A stretch of DNA of 64,000 nucleotides from an uncultured Bacteroidales bacterium (GTDB lineage Bacteria > Bacteroidota > Bacteroidia > Bacteroidales > UBA10428), in the NCBI GenBank assembly GCA_964592225.1, contig CAZQCO010000005.1, forward strand, positions 10,273-74,272, given 5' to 3'. How positions within the stretch are numbered: the stretch's first letter is position 1; every line of letters begins with the position of its first letter. Both the position numbers and the translations under genes were made by a program. The notes beneath the pieces were generated by a model. The model was not told where the DNA came from. It worked only from the letters and a program-made list of their open reading frames with translations, and did not search any database. Of the stretch, positions 3,552-62,103 are shown piece by piece.

Positions 3552-5588
3552 TTATTTTAAAGAATTCAGGTATTCTACAACTTTGTTGAATACGTTCTCA
3601 GATGTATAACCCAGTTTCTCATCCAGAACTTTAGCCGGAGCAGAGAATCCAAAGCTTTCAAGTCCGTAAACCAGACCCCTTGCACCGACAAGGCCTGCAA
3701 GTGTTACGGGTAATCCGGCCGTTAGTCCAAACACCGGTAAATTTTCAGGAATTACCGAATGCTGATAATCAGGATCCTGCTCGTGAAAAAGTCCCTCGGA
3801 AATAACAGATACAACCTGAACATTATATCCCTTTCTCTCCTTTAAAAGATTAGCCCCACCCATAAGGGTTGAAACTTCCGAACCATTCCCGACAAGTACA
3901 ATATCAATATTTCCTTCGTCTTTATGTACTATATATCCTCCCTTTTCAGCCATAAGGGCCTCTTTGTATCGGCTTTTAACAGCAGGAAGGTCTGGAATAC
4001 CTTGACGTGATAGCAGCAGTGCGGTAGGAGTATGAGTGTTCTCAAGTGCCATCTTCCATGCAACATTGGTTTCTATAGCATCGGCAGGACGTAAAACCAG
4101 AACACTTCTCTTACCTGAATGGTTTCTCAATTGTTCTAAAAGTCTTATTTGTGCTTCCTGTTCAACAGGTTGATGTGTAGGTCCATCCTCACCTACACGA
4201 AAAGCATCATGAGTCCAGATATATTTTACAGGTAATTCCATCAGTGCAGCAAGGCGAACAGCTGGTTTCATATAATCAGAAAATACAAAAAAAGTAGCAC
4301 AAGCAGGAATAACTCCACCATGTAAAGCCATACCATTGGCTATTCCTGCCATGGTTAATTCTGAAACACCTGCCTGTAAAAATGCACCACTAAAATCGCC
4401 CTTTACAAATTGTTTTGTCTTCTTTAAGAAGCCATCCGTTTTATCACTATTCGATAGATCGGCTGAAGCAACAATCATATTTTCAACCTTTTCGGCTAAA
4501 TATCCCAGTATAGTAGCAGAGGCCGCACGTGTAGCTATATTTTGTTTCTGCTCAATTAAACTAAAATCAATTTCCGGAATTTTGCCTGAAAAGAATTTGT
4601 GCAATTTTTTAGCCAGTTCCGGATTTTCGATTTCCCATTGAGACTGCCTATCTTTTCTTTCTCTTGCAATCTGAATTTTAGTTCTCTTTATTTTATCCCA
4701 ATAATCTTTGACCTCAGGAAAAAGAGTAAAAGGATTTGAAGGGTCACCACCGAGACTACTAATGGTATTCTCAAATGAAGCTCCCGCATCAGATAAAGGC
4801 ATGCCATGAGTCGATGTTTGTCGTTCGAATGATGTACCATTTTGTGCAATAGCACCTTTACCCATTATTGTTTTACCAATAATCAATGTGGGTTTTTCCT
4901 TCTCATTAACTGCTACCTGAAGAGCATTCCTGATTTCATTCTGATTGTTCCCTTCAATAGTCATCACTTTCCAACCCCAGGCTTCGTACTTTTTAGCAGT
5001 ATCCTCTTTAGTTACAGCCTTAGTTTCAGTTGAAAGTTGAATATCGTTTGAATCGTAAAACATTATCAGATTGTTCAGTCCGAGAAAGCCTGCTATTCTT
5101 CCTGCTCCCTGCGATATCTCTTCTTGAACACCTCCATCAGAGATGAAGGTGAAAATTTTATGTGACATCCAATCGCCAAACCGTGTAACAAGGAATTTTT
5201 CGACAATAGCTGCCCCAACAGCATTTGTATGACCCATTCCTAATGGACCGGAAGTATTTTCGACGCCTTTTGCAGGATTAACTTCGGGATGGCCTGGTGT
5301 AATACTTCCCCATTGTCTGAAATTTTCAATATCTTGAAGTGTATAATAACCAGCCAATATCAGAACGGAATAAAGCATAGGAGACATATGACCGGGATCG
5401 AGAAAAAACCTGTCCCGATTGATCCATATTCCATCTGTCGGATCATAATTAAGAAACTCTGAATAGAGAATATTGATAAAATCGGCTCCTCCCATTGCAC
5501 CACCCGGATGTCCTGATTTAGCTTTTTCGACCATTGCTGCAGATAAGATTCGAATATTGTCCGCCGAGTGTTCAATAACTCCCTTCAT
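3552..5588 (-). CDS. tkt: Transketolase
   Basis: 678 aa. ThDP-binding 'SGHPGGAMG', 'GDGGVQEEIS', and the 'THDAFRVGEDGPTHQPVEQ' signature. Confidence 0.95.
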   Translation of the reverse strand: MKGVIEHSADNIRILSAAMVEKAKSGHPGGAMGGADFINILYSEFLNYDPTDGIWINRDRFFLDPGHMSPMLYSVLILAGYYTLQDIENFRQWGSITPGHPEVNPAKGVENTSGPLGMGHTNAVGAAIVEKFLVTRFGDWMSHKIFTFISDGGVQEEISQGAGRIAGFLGLNNLIMFYDSNDIQLSTETKAVTKEDTAKKYEAWGWKVMTIEGNNQNEIRNALQVAVNEKEKPTLIIGKTIMGKGAIAQNGTSFERQTSTHGMPLSDAGASFENTISSLGGDPSNPFTLFPEVKDYWDKIKRTKIQIARERKDRQSQWEIENPELAKKLHKFFSGKIPEIDFSLIEQKQNIATRAASATILGYLAEKVENMIVASADLSNSDKTDGFLKKTKQFVKGDFSGAFLQAGVSELTMAGIANGMALHGGVIPACATFFVFSDYMKPAVRLAALMELPVKYIWTHDAFRVGEDGPTHQPVEQEAQIRLLEQLRNHSGKRSVLVLRPADAIETNVAWKMALENTHTPTALLLSRQGIPDLPAVKSRYKEALMAEKGGYIVHKDEGNIDIVLVGNGSEVSTLMGGANLLKERKGYNVQVVSVISEGLFHEQDPDYQHSVIPENLPVFGLTAGLPVTLAGLVGARGLVYGLESFGFSAPAKVLDEKLGYTSENVFNKVVEYLNSLK

Positions 5589-53978: not shown

Positions 53979-54015
53979 ATATTCTTCCTTTAATAAGGGA
54001 AGAATATTATTTTTG
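53979..54015 (+). terminator. Intrinsic terminator after the HMA gene
   Basis: atattcttcc (53979-53988) / 9-nt loop / ggaagaatat (53998-54007) gives a 10-bp stem, followed by tatttttg. Confidence 0.75.
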
Positions 54016-54186: not shown

Positions 54187-54222
54187 ATTAAAAAAAACAA
54201 TAACAATAACAATAACAATAAC
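54187..54222. repeat. Hexanucleotide microsatellite (ACAATA)x6
   Basis: Six perfect tandem copies at 54187-54222 plus a degenerate seventh. It ends 22 nt before the ATG of the first V-ATPase gene. Confidence 0.95.
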
Positions 54223-54244
54223 AATAACAATAAACAATATATCG

Positions 54245-54856
54245 ATGCAGAATAAACTTCAGGAGCTGACCGAAAAAATATACCAGGAAGGTGTCGAAAA
54301 GGGTAATGCTGAAGCACAGCAAATTCTAGAAAAAGCAAAGGCAGATGCGATTGAAATTATAGCAAATTCTAAAAAAGAAGCAGTAACTATTGTTGAAGAA
54401 GCCAAGAAAAAGGCTATTGAAATTAAAAGTAATACTGAATCGGAGATTAAACTATCAGGCAAACAAGCTTTCAATGCACTTAAACAACAGATAGTCGATC
54501 TGATAAATGGCGATATTACTTCTGCCTCAGTTAAAAGCGCTTTTGATAAGGACTTCATTAAAAAAATTATAGAAATAACTTTGGCTAATTGGGCAAAATC
54601 CGGCCAGAAAATGGATTTAGCTCTTCTTCTTCCTGCAAATGATGAAAAAACACTCTCCGATTTCTTTAAGAAAGAAGCAAAACAATATATCGACAAGGGT
54701 ATTACCGTTAAGTATGATTCATCAATAAATTCAGGGTTTCAGATCGGACCAAAAGACGGAAGTTATAAAGTATCCTTTACCGATAAAGATTTTATCAACT
54801 TCTTCAAACGATACTTGCGTCCCAAACTGGTTGAAATGCTTTTTAGTGCCAAATAG
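54245..54856 (+). CDS. ntpE: V-type ATPase subunit E
   Basis: 203 aa with a long Lys/Glu/Ala-rich N-terminal helix (peripheral-stalk type) and a globular C-terminus. It is the first gene of the operon. Confidence 0.78.
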   Translation: MQNKLQELTEKIYQEGVEKGNAEAQQILEKAKADAIEIIANSKKEAVTIVEEAKKKAIEIKSNTESEIKLSGKQAFNALKQQIVDLINGDITSASVKSAFDKDFIKKIIEITLANWAKSGQKMDLALLLPANDEKTLSDFFKKEAKQYIDKGITVKYDSSINSGFQIGPKDGSYKVSFTDKDFINFFKRYLRPKLVEMLFSAK

Positions 54857-57519: not shown

Positions 57520-58842
57520 ATGAACTCAATAGCTTTTCAGAAAATATATACCAAGATCACTCAGATTACAAAAGCAACCTGTTCTTTACATGCTTCAGGT
57601 ATTGGTTACGATGAACTGGCCTATGTACATGGTAAACTTGCCCAGGTTGTTAAAATTATTGGTGACACGGTTACTCTACAGGTTTTTGGTGGGACAGAAG
57701 GAATCCCCACCGATGCGGAGGTTACATTTCTTGGAAAAGCTCCCTCGCTAAAAGTCAGCGAAGATCTGGCGGGACGTTTTTTCAATGCCTACGGTGATCC
57801 TATCGATGGTGGACCCCCTGTCGATGGAGAAGAGCGCGAAATCGGAGGACCTTCGGTTAATCCGGTCCGCAGAGAACAACCTTCGGAACTTATTGCTACC
57901 GGTATTGCCGGAATCGACCTGAACAATACACTCGTTTCGGGACAAAAAATTCCCTTCTTTGCCGATCCTGACCAGCCCTATAACCAGGTGATGGCCATGG
58001 TGGCTCTTCGGGCAAAGACCGATAAAATTATTCTTGGTGGTATGGGGCTTACCAACGATGATTACCTGTTTTATAAAAATATTTTCGATAACGCTGGCGC
58101 CCTCAATCGTATAATCAGTTTTGTGAATACTACTGATAATCCTCCCGTCGAACGTTTACTGGTTCCTGATATGGCCCTGACAGCAGCTGAATATTTCGCT
58201 GTCGATAAAAACGAGACCGTGCTGGTGCTACTCACCGATATGACACTTTTTGCCGATGCCTTAAGTATTGTTTCTAACCGGATGGATCAAATCCCATCAA
58301 AGGATAGTATGCCCGGTTCACTTTACTCCGATCTGGCAAAAATATATGAAAAGGCAGTGCAATTCCCATCGGGCGGATCTATTACCATTATCGCAGTTAC
58401 AACACTTTCAGGCGGTGATATAACCCATGCTATTCCCGATAATACCGGCTATATTACTGAAGGCCAGCTTTTCCTTCGACGGGATACCGATATTGGAAAA
58501 GTTATTGTCGACCCGTTCAGGAGTCTTTCACGTCTGAAACAGCTCGTGATTGGTAAAAAAACCCGGGCCGATCATCCACAGGTGATGAATACGGCGGTTC
58601 GTTTATTTGCCGATGCTGCCAACGCCAAAACTAAACTCGAAAATGGTTTCGATCTCACCGATTATGATCAGCGAAGTTTGGAATATGCAAAGGAGTATTC
58701 GGAAAAACTACTGGCTATTGATGTGAATATTGATATTGACGAAATGCTCAACACAGGATGGAATCTGTTTGGAAAATATTTTAAACGCGAAGAATTAGGT
58801 ATTAAGAAGGAATTAGTTGATAAATATTGGAAGGAAAATTAA
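57520..58842 (+). CDS. ntpB: V-type ATPase subunit B
   Basis: 440 aa with 'LTDMTLFADALSIVS', 'PGSLYSDLAKIYE' and 'GSITIIAVTTLSGGDITHAIPDNTGYITEGQ'. Confidence 0.96.
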   Translation: MNSIAFQKIYTKITQITKATCSLHASGIGYDELAYVHGKLAQVVKIIGDTVTLQVFGGTEGIPTDAEVTFLGKAPSLKVSEDLAGRFFNAYGDPIDGGPPVDGEEREIGGPSVNPVRREQPSELIATGIAGIDLNNTLVSGQKIPFFADPDQPYNQVMAMVALRAKTDKIILGGMGLTNDDYLFYKNIFDNAGALNRIISFVNTTDNPPVERLLVPDMALTAAEYFAVDKNETVLVLLTDMTLFADALSIVSNRMDQIPSKDSMPGSLYSDLAKIYEKAVQFPSGGSITIIAVTTLSGGDITHAIPDNTGYITEGQLFLRRDTDIGKVIVDPFRSLSRLKQLVIGKKTRADHPQVMNTAVRLFADAANAKTKLENGFDLTDYDQRSLEYAKEYSEKLLAIDVNIDIDEMLNTGWNLFGKYFKREELGIKKELVDKYWKEN

Positions 58843-58899
58843 AAAATCTTTTTCTAGTTACAAGTTACTAGAGATAAGAATCAAGATATTTCAGAATAA

Positions 58900-58953
58900 A
58901 TGAATAATTATAAGGAATTAAAAATATGGCAGAAAGGAATGGAGATTGTATAA
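58900..58953 (+). pseudogene. 17-codon remnant of a four-helix-bundle (23S-IVS-type) protein gene
   Basis: ATG...TAA encodes MNNYKELKIWQKGMEIV*. This has the characteristic N-terminal pattern (aromatic/E-x-L-x-(V/I)-WQK-(A/G)-x-x-(L/I)) also seen in the intact copy 100 nt downstream (FEDIVAWQKARELA). Confidence 0.5.
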
Positions 58954-58961
58954 AGTTTAAT

Positions 58962-58996
58962 GTTTTGAGTTTTGAGTTTTGAGTTTTGAGTTTTGA
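58962..58996. repeat. Heptanucleotide tandem repeat (GTTTTGA)x5: left arm of the four-helix-bundle cassette
   Basis: Five perfect copies at 58962-58996, then a degenerate gtttttttga. Confidence 0.95.
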
Positions 58997-59051
58997 GTTT
59001 TTTTGAACAAAAATTGAAATCTTTTAGTAATTAATAAAATATCCTTAAATA

Positions 59052-59450
59052 ATGGCAACTATTACATGTTTTGAAGATATAGTGGCCTGGCAAAAAGCCA
59101 GAGAGTTGGCTAAGGATGTATGGTGCCTTACAGTTAACGAACCTATATCAAAAGACTTCTCCTTGATTGATCAAATGAGAAGATCGAGTGGCTCTGTTAT
59201 GGATAATATTGCTGAAGGATTTGAGAGAGGTGGTAATAAAGAATTTGTACAATTTCTTTCATACTCTAAAGGATCTTTGGGTGAAACAAAATCCCAACTT
59301 TACCGGGCATTCGATAGAAATCATATTAATCAGGAGACTCTTAATAATCAGTTTTTAAAAATTGATGAATTGGGGAATATGATTGGAGGATTAATGAGGT
59401 ACTTGAAAAACTCAAAAATAAAAGGTACAAAATTCAACACAAACTACTAA
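59052..59450 (+). CDS. Four-helix-bundle protein (23S rRNA intervening-sequence protein family)
   Basis: 132 aa. 'FEDIVAWQKARELAKDVW', 'DQMRRSSGSVMDNIAEGFERGGNKEFVQFLSYSKGSLGETKSQL' matches the family pattern (R-(A/S)-x-x-S-(I/V)-x-x-NIAEG..R....E..(Q/R)FL..(A/S).GS..E). Confidence 0.88.
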   Translation: MATITCFEDIVAWQKARELAKDVWCLTVNEPISKDFSLIDQMRRSSGSVMDNIAEGFERGGNKEFVQFLSYSKGSLGETKSQLYRAFDRNHINQETLNNQFLKIDELGNMIGGLMRYLKNSKIKGTKFNTNY

Positions 59451-59452
59451 CC

Positions 59453-59487
59453 CGAAACACGAAACAAAAAAACACGAGACACGAAAC
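59453..59487. repeat. Simple-repeat right arm (CGAAACA / CGAGACA units) of the four-helix-bundle cassette
   Basis: The sequence cgaaacacgaaacaaaaaaacacgagacacgaaac ends 7 nt before the ntpD ATG. As RNA it can pair with the GUUUUGAG units of the left arm if G:U wobble is allowed (7 of 8 positions per unit). Confidence 0.7.
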
Positions 59488-59494
59488 TAAAGAA

Positions 59495-60094
59495 ATGGCA
59501 ATAAAATTTCAATATAACAAGACTTCGTTACAAAGCCTGGAAAAACAACTCAAGGTCAGGGTACGTGCTCTACCGACCATTAAAAATAAGGAGTCGGCTT
59601 TGAGGGTTGAAGTTAAGAAGGCCAAGGATGAGACCAAACGCTTTGAAGATGAGTTAAATAAAGCCATTCAATCGTATGAAAGTATGATCGAACTATGGGG
59701 CGAGTTTGATACAAGTCTTATTAGTATAGAAGATGTTAAACTGGGTATTAAAAAAATTGCCGGTGTGAAAACTCCTGTGCTGGAAGGAATCGACTATTAT
59801 ATAAAAGAATTTAGTGTATTCAATCAACCCAAATGGTTCCTTGAAGGTTTAGCTATAATTAAAAAAATGGTTGATCTGGCAATAAACCGCGAAGTGTTTG
59901 CAAGGAAAACGGAATTGCTCGATCATGCCCGGAAAAAAACCACTCAGAAAGTTAATCTCTTCGAAAAGGTACAGATTCCCGGCTACGAAGATGCTATCCG
60001 TAAAATCAAACGGTTCATGGAAGATGAAGATAATCTCTCAAAATCGGCACAGAAAATTGTGAAAACCCGTCAGCAAAAGGAGGCAGTAGCATGA
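59495..60094 (+). CDS. ntpD: V-type ATPase subunit D
   Basis: 199 aa. N-terminus 'NKTSLQSLEKQLKVRVRALPTIKNKESAL' shows the central-stalk coiled coil. It overlaps ntpI by 4 nt. Confidence 0.9.
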   Translation: MAIKFQYNKTSLQSLEKQLKVRVRALPTIKNKESALRVEVKKAKDETKRFEDELNKAIQSYESMIELWGEFDTSLISIEDVKLGIKKIAGVKTPVLEGIDYYIKEFSVFNQPKWFLEGLAIIKKMVDLAINREVFARKTELLDHARKKTTQKVNLFEKVQIPGYEDAIRKIKRFMEDEDNLSKSAQKIVKTRQQKEAVA

Positions 60095-62103
60095 TAGTAC
60101 CGATGAAAAAATATTCTTTCCTGATTTATCACAGGGAATATATCGAGTTTCTGAAAGGAATTCAGGAACTGGGAGTATTACATGTTATTGAGAAGGAATC
60201 GGGAGAAATTCAGGACGAAGAAACACGAATAAACTATCAGCATATAAATGAACTCAGCAATGCCATAAAATTTCTCTCAAAACGTATTGTTAATTCTCAA
60301 CCCGACGAAAAAGAAAAGGACGGACTCAAAATATTAGATGAGCTAAAGAAGCTTCAGGATGATCAGGAATCCTATCAACATGAACTGACACAACTCAGAA
60401 AAGAGAAATCGTTGCTTGAATCCTGGGGCGATTTTAGCTGGGAATTGATAGAAAAACTTAAAAAATCGGGGTACCGGATTGAATTTTTTAATTGTCAGAG
60501 CCGGAATTTTAATCCCGACTGGGAAGATTCGTACACTATCTTTCGTATCAATGAATTGAGCGGACAGGTCTATTTTATTATAATAGGAAAATCCGATGAA
60601 CCGATTGAGATCGATGCAGAAAATATCAGACTTCCTGAAGTATCACTATCAAAACTCAATAAGTCGATAGGGGAAGTTGAAGGTATTCTTAAAAAAACGG
60701 AAGACCTTTTCAATGATTTTGCGGCTCAGTATCTTGAGTTACTCAAAGAGACTAAAGAAAAAATAAGCGCTCATCTCAATTTCAGCCGGGTAATTCTAAA
60801 TACTCAGAAAGAAGCGGAGGATAAGCTCATGTTTCTTGAAGGATGGGTACCGAAAGAGAAGCAAGAGAATATTAATGCTTATCTTAAGGAGCAAGGCGTT
60901 TATTATGTTGTATCAAAACCTGATCCCGATGAAAATGTACCCATTAAACTGAAAAACAGTAAATTTTCAAGGCTTTTTGAACCTGTTGGTGAACTTTACA
61001 CCATGCCCGATTACAAAGAGTTGGACTTAACCCCGTTCTTCGCGCCCTTTTTCATGATGTTTTTTGGCTTTTGCCTGGGCGATATGGGCTACGGCTTATT
61101 AATTCTCATAGCAGCCATAATTTTGCGTTTCAGAGTTAAACCCCAATTAAAACCCATTCTTACATTAGGGATTTTTCTGGGTGCCGCCACCATATTCATG
61201 GGCATGCTGGGAGGTACATTATTTGGAATCAATCTTATCGATTCGGGCTACACAATAACTGCAAAAACACTTGAAGCTCTTAAAAATTCAGGACTTCCTC
61301 ACAATCTTATTGACCAATTATCTGTCCTGACTAATTCCCATATTGAAAAGCAAAGTAATTTTCTTTCGCAAGTTAAATCGGTAATTGGCGAACCAGCCTT
61401 TCGGATGTATCGATCGCAAATCTTAAGATTCGTTGAATCTGACTATACTATTCTTAATTCATTCCGCTTCTTAATGCTCAATACCGACCAACTTATGTTA
61501 TTGGCCTTTGCAGTCGGTTTTGTTCAGACCATATTTGGAATGGGTATCAAAGCCGCCAACAAAGCCATTCAGTTTGGTATTGTGCATGCACTTTCGACCA
61601 TAGGATGGATTGCGTTAATACTGGGTGGTGTAGTTTTATACGCATTGAAGCATTTTGATGTCATTACACCCGCTCAGTTTAAAACCACTTTCATAATAAT
61701 TGGTGCGGTAACAGGTTTCTTCATTTTCTTTGTTAATAGCCCGGGTAAAAATCCTTTCCTCAACCTGGGCCTCGGAGTATGGGATACATACAATATGGCT
61801 TCAGGGCTCCTTGGCGATCTTTTATCCTATGTAAGGTTATTTGCACTGGGAATTTCAAGTGCTGTATTGGGCAATGTATTTAATCAGCTCGCTTTCAGCT
61901 TAAGTCCTGACATTATTGTCGTCGGACAGCTTGTTACCCTGATTATATTACTTTTCGGACACAGCCTCAATCTTTTCATGGCGGCCTTAGGTGCATTCGT
62001 TCATCCTCTGCGCCTGACCTTTGTTGAATTTTATAAAAATGCTGGTTTTGCCGGAGGAGGCAAAAAATATGACCCTTTCAGAAATGCTGTTAACACTCAA
62101 TAA
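60091..62103 (+). CDS. ntpI: V-type ATPase subunit I (a-subunit)
   Basis: 670 aa. A cytoplasmic N-terminal half is followed by about 7-8 TM segments. The essential Arg context is 'SYVRLFALGISS'. Confidence 0.9.
   Translation: MIVPMKKYSFLIYHREYIEFLKGIQELGVLHVIEKESGEIQDEETRINYQHINELSNAIKFLSKRIVNSQPDEKEKDGLKILDELKKLQDDQESYQHELTQLRKEKSLLESWGDFSWELIEKLKKSGYRIEFFNCQSRNFNPDWEDSYTIFRINELSGQVYFIIIGKSDEPIEIDAENIRLPEVSLSKLNKSIGEVEGILKKTEDLFNDFAAQYLELLKETKEKISAHLNFSRVILNTQKEAEDKLMFLEGWVPKEKQENINAYLKEQGVYYVVSKPDPDENVPIKLKNSKFSRLFEPVGELYTMPDYKELDLTPFFAPFFMMFFGFCLGDMGYGLLILIAAIILRFRVKPQLKPILTLGIFLGAATIFMGMLGGTLFGINLIDSGYTITAKTLEALKNSGLPHNLIDQLSVLTNSHIEKQSNFLSQVKSVIGEPAFRMYRSQILRFVESDYTILNSFRFLMLNTDQLMLLAFAVGFVQTIFGMGIKAANKAIQFGIVHALSTIGWIALILGGVVLYALKHFDVITPAQFKTTFIIIGAVTGFFIFFVNSPGKNPFLNLGLGVWDTYNMASGLLGDLLSYVRLFALGISSAVLGNVFNQLAFSLSPDIIVVGQLVTLIILLFGHSLNLFMAALGAFVHPLRLTFVEFYKNAGFAGGGKKYDPFRNAVNTQ

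Follow-up and report, generated by a model that had tools for sequence, protein, structure and literature searches.

The window analyzed here is a 64-kb stretch (64,000 nt, 36% G+C) from the genome of an uncultured Bacteroidales bacterium. It carries a V-type ATPase (V-ATPase) operon of the Bacteroidales type, and our subject is the long intergenic region between two of its genes, ntpB and ntpD. These two genes are separated by 652 nt, compared with 2, 16, 23, -4 and 38 nt at the remaining junctions of the operon; re-measured, the distances agree with those of a preliminary description of this DNA (652 nt at ntpB|ntpD, -4 to 38 nt elsewhere). The region contains a gene for a protein of the four-helix-bundle (FHB) family, bracketed by two tandem arrays of 7-nt units, the left and right arms. 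Upstream of the left arm lies the relic of another FHB gene (Table 1). The FHB gene together with its arms is referred to below as the cassette.

The spacer had been described as holding a complete FHB gene for 132 aa, and this is borne out by family models above their curated cut-offs. The protein matches PF05635 (23S_rRNA_IVP; 2.8e-34, 118 bits, cut-off 33.8) and TIGR02436 (four helix bundle protein; 5.7e-32, 110 bits, cut-off 24), and the open reading frame (ORF) belongs to the FHB family. Its AlphaFold2 (AF2) model, built with 35 homologues, has a pLDDT of 91 and helices at residues 11-28, 36-59, 62-88 and 94-120. Using Foldseek we identified 2GSC (Xanthomonas XCC0516) as the best match in the PDB (TM 0.80/0.91, rmsd 1.5 A), followed by 2RLD (BT_0352 of B. 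thetaiotaomicron, which carries the annotation S23 ribosomal protein family) and next by Avd of the diversity-generating retroelements (DGRs; 4DWL, 8UB7). Chains A-E are present in each of 2GSC, 2RLD and 4DWL; the protein of the window was modelled as a monomer. Compared with its counterpart in a metagenomic relative (locus L081), the gene has a dN/dS of about 0.1 and, judged by these substitutions, is shown to be under purifying selection. No second FHB gene was found anywhere in the 64-kb window. The cassette contains no transposase. PADLOC gave no hit, and PHROGs a single weak one, to Avd, for the protein of another FHB lineage (type A, see below). A tblastn search against phages gave no match, and there is thus no sign of a phage vector. 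In an Rfam scan of positions 58000-60500 with a permissive E-value nothing relevant was found, and the same interval gave no rRNA match.

The arms were analyzed with Tandem Repeats Finder (TRF). The left arm holds (GTTTTGA)x5.7 at 58962-59001 with 100% matches, and apart from the two arms no further multi-copy heptamer array was found in the window. The pairing proposed earlier for their RNA, GUUUUGAG with CACGAAAC at 7 of 8 positions, is reproduced, one G:U pair being among the seven. Cofolded alone, the arms form 37 bp (10 G-C, 23 A-U and 4 G-U) at -31.1 kcal/mol, compared with -19.0 +/- 3.5 kcal/mol for shuffled right arms and -20.8 kcal/mol for the antisense strand. When the region 58940-59500 is folded as RNA, as the preliminary description had suggested, both the minimum free energy (MFE) and the centroid structures close the cassette through the arms (z = -3.75). 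The predicted stem is a run of 6-bp helices split by 1x1 A.A mismatches. The heptamer ctcaaaa, previously placed at 59411-59417, is actually at 59412-59418 and lies outside this stem.

Table 1. Positions in the window of the V-ATPase genes, the resident cassette and the relic of an older one
Feature	Position	Strand	Evidence or remark
V-ATPase subunit E gene	54245 (start)
DUF2764/subunit C gene	54859 (start)
V-ATPase subunit A gene	55727 (start)
ntpB (V-type ATPase subunit B), upstream host gene	57520-58842	+	PF00006, PF22919; 80 genomic loci are 82-93% identical in aa
Relic left arm ctagttacaagttactag of older type-A FHB cassette	58854-58871	+	aligned to the L001 and L005 left arms, just past the ntpB stop
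17-codon relic of type-A FHB gene, MNNYKELKIWQKGMEIV and stop	58900-58953	+	corresponds to codons 1-17 of the L001/L005 PF05635 genes at the same junction
Left arm of resident (type-B) cassette	58954-59008	+	pairs with right arm in MFE and centroid folds
A/T-rich spacer with FHB translation start region	59009-59051	+	within predicted loop; ~85-90% identical to L083 though non-coding
Intact FHB protein gene, 132 aa	59052-59450	+	PF05635, TIGR02436, AF2, Foldseek, dN/dS
Right arm, degenerate heptamer array CGAAACA/CGAGACA	59449-59487	+	TRF period 7; ends 7 nt 5' of ntpD ATG
ntpD (V-type ATPase subunit D), downstream host gene	59495-60094	+	PF01813; first ~20 codons within horizontally exchanged tract
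V-ATPase subunit I gene	60091 (start)
V-ATPase subunit K gene	62142 (start)

To see how the ntpB|ntpD junction (B|D) is occupied in other genomes, relatives were sampled by an NtpB scan of species-representative genomes, which gave 80 loci, mostly from Bacteroidales metagenome-assembled genomes (MAGs). The junction is polymorphic for the insertion. The gaps are distributed as follows: in 53 of 79 loci the gap is at most 100 nt and the site is near-empty; in 9 loci it is 101-250 nt, with various contents including some simple repeats; in 17 loci it exceeds 250 nt and contains a PF05635 gene (10 cases), an ORF6N gene (4), other ORFs (2) or repeats only (1). Near-empty alleles, which the earlier reading of the region as an insertion led one to look for, are thus found in relatives. 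At least five lineages, 31-67% identical to the protein of the window, are represented among the ten FHB genes, and every one of these genes is bracketed by mutually reverse-complementary arrays whose unit varies from locus to locus: AGTGAAC on the left and GTTCACT on the right in L003, AAGTTTC and GAAACTT in L005, AGTTCAG and CTGAACT in L032, GATTGTA and TCTACAA in L049, and, in L036, L043 and L067, longer hairpin-containing units on the left with complementary longer units on the right. The ORF6N genes (PF10543, 180-216 aa), co-directional with the operon and found in four Paludibacter-type genomes (L022, L034, L042 and L048), have no heptamer arms. Since these inserts occupy the same site without arms, the arms belong to the FHB cassette and not to the site. 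Spacers made of repeats and devoid of ORFs are seen in L024 (5311-5685), L054 (5317-5556), L047 (5314-5444) and L002 (5320-5387), where the 63-nt spacer retains a right-arm-like relic, cgacttgaaacttgaacc. These spacers may be scars of lost cassettes.

Large inserts are almost confined to this junction: gaps above 250 nt were observed at 17 of 79 B|D sites against 4 of 363 for the other five junctions (p = 1e-10), and B|D is the boundary between subunits of high and low stoichiometry. The insert could then be a domesticated regulatory module, in which a processing or decoupling site would set the levels of A3B3 against those of the single-copy D and I subunits with the FHB protein as an RNA-binding partner. 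Such a role would suit the purifying selection on the ORF and its fold, which is that of Avd, an RNA binder in the DGR ribonucleoprotein. We nevertheless regard it as very unlikely. The cassette is absent from two thirds of the relatives, ORF6N and other unrelated genes without arms also occupy B|D, and, as detailed below, FHB lineages replace one another, the history of the cassette differs from that of its flanks, and the same cassettes are found in many functionally unrelated operons.

Other elements were encountered upstream in the same operon. In the Paludibacter-like L022, L043 and L046, the ntpA|ntpB junction, about 740-1000 nt 5' of ntpB, contains an ORF for a Y1 transposase resembling those of the IS200/RAYT group (MDFIENNIYHVYNQGNN...), flanked by hairpins similar to repetitive extragenic palindromes (gtctgacgcgaagcggctgac). 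In L034 a P-loop, zeta-toxin-like ORF is present there instead. With different elements at ntpA|ntpB and ntpB|ntpD, the V-ATPase operon has been invaded at two junctions.

The cassette now present in the window (type B) was preceded by another one. The closest relative by NtpB (L001, 93%) and the also close L005 both carry at ntpB|ntpD an FHB gene of the type-A lineage, whose protein begins with MNNYK(D/E)LKIWQ(K/N)GM(D/E)(V/I)V (MNNYKDLKIWQKGMDVV... in the L001 copy). Positions 58843-58953 of the window can be aligned to the left arm of L001 (ctagtYRcaagtYac) and to the opening 17 type-A codons; the window lineage therefore once carried a type-A cassette. According to this alignment, the incoming type-B cassette has replaced everything 3' of type-A codon 17, leaving the type-A left arm and 17 codons in place, and the left recombination junction falls within about 10 nt of 58953. 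The preliminary description had attributed the 17-codon fragment to an earlier or decayed second insertion. It is indeed what remains of a different FHB cassette that was there earlier, and it implies replacement by recombination instead of a second independent insertion. A comparable case is provided by L168, where a wza-like gene lies between two cassettes (2495-2881 and 4104-4490) that share 94% identity over 614 nt, arms included. In the related L125 (cassettes at 1103-1489 and 2498-2929) the second site is held by a different FHB lineage, which on sequence comparison is a further replacement or conversion event. Decaying cassettes were also observed: L152 (4501-5147) consists of (GCTGGTT)x9, a frame-disrupted FHB ORF and (CCAGCAA)x4, and the FHB gene of L006 (5363-5746) has an in-frame stop after codon 84.

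The type-B cassette was compared with that of the metagenomic relative L081-L083, which has a 95%-identical FHB at the same junction and no type-A relic. Between the window and L081, the FHB genes are identical at 94% of nucleotides and 87% of third positions, with a dS of 0.22, whereas ntpB (81% and 49%, dS about 2.5) and ntpD (81% and 52%, dS saturated) are far more divergent. With a dS of 0.22 in the cassette against more than 2 in its flanks, the two lineages must have exchanged the cassette long after their V-ATPase genes diverged. The tract of high identity with L081/L083 runs from the left arm (~58953) to about codon 20 of ntpD, third positions of ntpD differing from L081 at 5 of 20 sites in codons 1-20 and at 35 of 60 in codons 21-80 (p = 0.02). 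On its left the exchanged tract thus stops within the old cassette, and on its right some 20 codons into ntpD; ends located in ntpD and inside a resident cassette indicate recombination and no precise transposition. A transposon or MITE (miniature inverted-repeat transposable element) was considered and rejected: the arm units are locus-specific, the cassette has no transposase and is present as a single copy in 64 kb, and the ends of the exchanged tract do not coincide with the arm ends (target-site duplications were not searched for systematically). A weaker excess of cassette over flank similarity is seen in the pairs L043/L067, L036/L043, L101/L110 and L142/L128. In the V-ATPase operon of the cassette-sharing relative, subunit I (L081 4057-5874) has 605 aa, against 670 aa in the window (60091-62103).

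The relation between FHB lineage and junction was then considered over all cassettes. FHB proteins more than 80% identical always occupy the same junction. Below about 80% identity lineage and junction are uncoupled, with no signal left (median identities of 55.5% against 53.9%), so that a V-ATPase-specific FHB clade does not exist. At different junctions, the mean distance between arm units is 0.8 for the few FHB pairs above 70% identity and about 2.7 for pairs below it, which indicates that the arms move with the gene; taken as a whole, the correlation between FHB similarity and arm unit is weak (rho -0.12).

Copies in other contexts were collected by a protein search (proteins 57-67% identical) and from 80 metagenome loci. 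Whether other copies with similar arms existed had been left as a question by the preliminary description; they are common, complementary arrays flanking the gene across a set of 89 FHB cassettes. Period-7 arrays have a density of 4.08 per kb within 150 nt of FHB genes and of 0.18 per kb elsewhere in the same loci, a 22-fold enrichment. The window left arm gives a duplex energy of -33.6 with its own right arm and a mean of -32.4 with the right arms of other loci, on 100-nt flanks. Such energies are noisy because the arms of different loci share a GTT/AAC core, and tests on unit consensus and alignment were therefore used instead. The reverse-complement alignment score of the two arms reaches 30 in 65 of 89 cassettes, compared with 17 of 89 when arms of different loci are paired (p = 4e-13). 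Of the 50 cassettes in which TRF found arrays on both sides, 30 have left and right units that are reverse complements to within 1 nt, against 11% for mismatched loci (p = 7e-16). The two arms thus covary from locus to locus. What is conserved is the core, GTT in 43 of 50 left units and AAC in 46 of 50 right units; written generally, the arrays are (GTTYNNN)n ... (NNNRAAC)n, with units that differ between loci. The left array begins 1 nt past the upstream stop, and 9 nt separate the end of the right array from the downstream ATG (medians). Folded at full length, 69 of 89 cassettes have an MFE structure with at least 15 flank-to-flank pairs (median 32), against 19 of 80 control segments (median 7; p = 1.5e-12).

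These statistics bear on another alternative, an ordinary small accessory gene lying in a long slippage-prone spacer of simple repeats, with neither a cassette nor any meaningful pairing. Heptamer arrays do exist far from FHB genes (73 cases) and have been described upstream of start codons with no reference to FHB genes (PMC4679880), and the MFE folds of 24% of random control segments are closed by 15 pairs or more. Chance associations of this sort would account neither for the 22-fold enrichment nor for a within-locus complementarity far above that of mismatched loci, and the polymorphism between empty and filled sites, the relic of an earlier cassette in the window and the discordant divergence of cassette and flanks are equally at odds with it. 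Contradicted by the comparative statistics, this alternative is scarcely credible.

The layout found in the window is seen again between conserved housekeeping genes of many Bacteroidota and in at least one cyanobacterial plasmid. Both neighbours are visible for 53 cassettes; in 47 of these the flanking genes are co-directional, the median gaps being 81 and 64 nt. Besides ntpB|ntpD, the recurrent junctions are sufB|sufC, pyrG|yidC, E2|E1 of 2-oxoacid dehydrogenase, lacI|sugar symporter, a nuoF-type site and purE. The gene order gmk|FHB|nadD in Flavobacterium columnare is taken from a published gene table (PMC5524665). The sufA|FHB|sufB cassette of Riemerella is flanked by (GGTTYAA)n and (TTRAACC)n. 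On plasmid pNsp_c of Nostoc sp. ATCC 53789 (L178 1441-1945), the FHB gene lies between (GGGGAAAA)n and (TTTTCCCC)n, a complementary pair as elsewhere with a unit devoid of the GTT core; these arrays hint at a link with the short tandemly repeated repetitive (STRR) sequences of cyanobacteria. Taken together, the empty sites, the other armed copies and the horizontal movement support the earlier view of an inserted cassette of the intervening-sequence type, and we hold the cassette and its mobility, taken alone, to be highly probable.

Two further observations concern the arrays. In L112 (3784-4680), 3' of a DUF62 gene, (GTTTGAG)n is followed by at least four tandem units of about 172 nt, each ending in (CAAACTT)-type heptamers, and no FHB gene is present. 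At L115 (from 1944) and L159 (from 666), mechanical ORF calling takes the right-arm heptamers for coding sequence and adds a spurious N-terminal stretch to the downstream gene (ERGTQNAEHGTQNAERGTRNTKP in the case of a sugar symporter), likely a recurrent annotation artefact.

How is the cassette expressed? On the + strand no TAnnTTTG box was found between 55623 and 61118, and a sigma-70/terminator scan and a search for -7 boxes gave neither promoter nor terminator inside the cassette. Being co-directional with the operon and without promoter-like signal, the cassette must be expressed by read-through. The sole candidate promoter of the operon on the + strand is a Bacteroidetes-type -7 box, TATTTTTG, at 54008-54015. 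Directly 5' of the first V-ATPase gene, whose ATG is at 54245, lies an (AACAAT)x7 array (54196-54239).

We propose that the element is a promoterless selfish cassette of the type known from the intervening sequences (IVSs) of 23S rRNA, residing in a protein-coding operon. Its parts are an Avd-like FHB gene with an A/T-rich start region, a 5' (GTTYNNN)n array and a complementary 3' (NNNRAAC)n array, and read-through from the host operon would be its only transcription. On the operon transcript the arrays would zip in vivo into a long imperfect stem, looping out the cassette and bringing the stop and start codons of the host genes close together again, as the stems of IVSs do in 23S rRNA. RNase III could plausibly act on a stem of this kind and may cleave it in the cell; we propose that the insertion is tolerated for this reason, at a presumed neutrality or benefit for the host, and that the FHB message may be released. 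No recombinase is encoded, and spread would depend on host recombination, with homology supplied by conserved flanking housekeeping genes or by resident cassettes. We consider this whole package, including the stem at the RNA level, somewhat more probable than improbable.

Several results weigh against it. The argument from G:U wobble for pairing in RNA, made in the preliminary description, holds at this locus only and fails over 65 cassettes, in which wobbles of the sense type (160) and antisense type (162) are equally frequent, leaving no G:U bias. Over the set of 89, the duplex energies are -43.0 kcal/mol for antisense and -43.3 kcal/mol for sense, MFE closure is found in 66 and 69 cassettes respectively, and the sense duplex is the more stable in 46. 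With such flat strand statistics, sequence alone cannot separate RNA from DNA pairing, and complementarity could be kept at the DNA level. About a quarter of the cassettes have no clear arms. The stem of the window is A/U-rich and broken by a 1x1 mismatch every 7 nt. Among the otherwise identical cassettes of L081-L083 the left array varies from 1.5 copies (L081) to 5 (L083), the right arm having 8 units. In L081 the predicted stem is nearly gone (5 pairs), although assemblies may collapse repeats; the stem is thus not strictly required in the short term. Finally, the FHB sample (L096-L175) was drawn from the relatives of a single FHB lineage, and the loci come mostly from MAG or metagenome contigs.

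Much of this would fit an action of the arrays in DNA, as determinants of mobility or turnover, with the RNA stem as a by-product. They could be hairpin or cruciform substrates, sites of slipped-strand or template-switch events by which cassettes arise, are homogenised and are lost, or sites for enzymes acting in trans. The lack of strand asymmetry in wobble counts, duplex energies and MFE closure speaks for such a function. So does the fast change in array copy number, seen again between L084 and L085, whose right arms differ by 4 units. The arms move together with the gene, and junctions with arrays only or with a single arm (L024, L054, L047 and L002) are expected after deletion between arms. 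A GTT/AAC core every 7 nt moreover suggests motif recognition besides pairing. On the other hand, the cassette carries no recombinase, the unit sequences vary by locus save for the GTT core, and the sole exchange that could be mapped ends in ntpD and in an older cassette, not at array ends. The arrays also abut the host stop and start codons precisely and the cassettes are nearly always co-directional with their neighbours, which points to a constraint at the level of transcript or translation, and in the window the pairing of the sense RNA is much the stronger of the two strands. We therefore consider an action in DNA possible but unlikely.

Under the proposed IVS-type cassette, the conserved phasing of GTT and AAC suggests a constraint beyond pairing, and an Avd-like FHB pentamer is a candidate binder of the arrays. 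A more ambitious version can be formulated, in which FHB cassettes are RNA-centred selfish elements spanning phyla, the IVSs of 23S rRNA being a special case resident in rRNA, and in which the FHB pentamer binds the arrays of its own transcript. The pentamer might then direct excision by RNase III and protect the freed RNA, might let terminating ribosomes shunt over the stem to the downstream cistron, or might recruit a reverse transcriptase (RT) in trans, copying the excised RNA into conserved, highly transcribed genes. The 7-nt GTT phasing, common to FHB lineages with only ~30% identity, would be a protein recognition code. We regard this version as quite unlikely.

The function and origin of the 23S rRNA IVSs and of their S23p/FHB ORFs have been in question since the early 1990s, and PF05635 is a very large family whose sole studied relative is the Avd of DGRs. 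FHB genes with an ORF-in-stem layout (stop codon, array, gene, array, start codon), located in operons and horizontally exchanged, recast the IVSs as one habitat of a general cassette. In a literature search whose coverage is incomplete, so that an earlier description may exist, we found neither FHB cassettes in protein-coding operons nor paired heptamer arms. The heptamer arrays of Bacteroidota and Cyanobacteria are now tied to a gene family, the cassettes of Riemerella (sufA|FHB|sufB) and Flavobacterium columnare (gmk|FHB|nadD) offer tractable experimental systems, and, for annotation, the cassettes repeatedly give rise to false N-terminal extensions and to seemingly split operons.

Several known systems share features with the cassette. 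From Beggiatoaceae, Cyanobacteria and five Bacteroidetes, TAACTGA heptamer arrays located upstream of start codons have been reported, and they were not connected with FHB genes (PMC4679880). Like these arrays and the cyanobacterial STRR or long simple-sequence repeats, the right arms are AAC-core tandem heptamers just 5' of start codons. Bacteroidota and Cyanobacteria are phyla common to both, and the right arm of L032 and L084, (GAACTGA)n, is nearly the TAACTGA unit. The published arrays were treated as stand-alone, possibly translational signals, whereas those of the cassette are complementary pairs around a gene.

The likeness of PF05635 to Avd has already been remarked upon (PMC10053308). 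The FHB protein and the Avd of DGRs (4DWL, 8UB7) share the same four-helix-bundle fold, with TM of about 0.7-0.88, and Avd is a pentamer that binds structured RNA. In sequence the relation is distant (PF22296, 0.0038; NF033474, 20 bits against a cut-off of 80). The locus was examined as a possible DGR and rejected: between 52000 and 64000 the V-ATPase subunits are the only ORFs above 300 aa (template and variable repeats were not looked for), and no RT-sized ORF is present in the ~7 kb before the FHB gene or in the ~4.5 kb after it.

The Correia elements of Neisseria, processed by RNase III, and the enterobacterial ERIC and IRU sequences are likewise selfish, transcribed intergenic inserts whose inverted ends form an RNA hairpin that alters mRNA processing. 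They are non-coding, with conserved terminal inverted repeats, target-site duplications and many near-identical copies per genome. FHB cassettes, in contrast, carry a conserved protein gene, and their arm sequences are not conserved.

The closest comparison is with the IVSs of 23S rRNA, known from Leptospira and Coxiella burnetii (PMC4990558). The Coxiella IVS has 428 nt, a 28-bp terminal stem and an S23p/FHB ORF, and RNase III cuts it midway along the stem (PMC4990558). Like the IVSs, the cassette (~530 nt, against 428-444 nt in Coxiella) encodes a PF05635 protein, its ORF is enclosed by a predicted stem of terminal complementary sequences, and it is embedded in a highly conserved host transcript, with which it would be transcribed. 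It also shares with them a sporadic occurrence, the site being near-empty in most relatives, and evidence of horizontal transfer. Unlike the IVSs, it is hosted by a protein-coding operon instead of helix 25 or 45 of 23S rRNA, its stem is made of tandem heptamer arrays with a GTT/AAC core instead of a unique 28-bp inverted repeat, and its arrays adjoin stop and start codons. Excision by RNase III is proven for IVSs and putative for the window cassette. Being located between ntpB and ntpD, the element is not a 23S rRNA IVS in the strict sense, which is defined by residence in rRNA; it would work like an IVS without being one by that definition.

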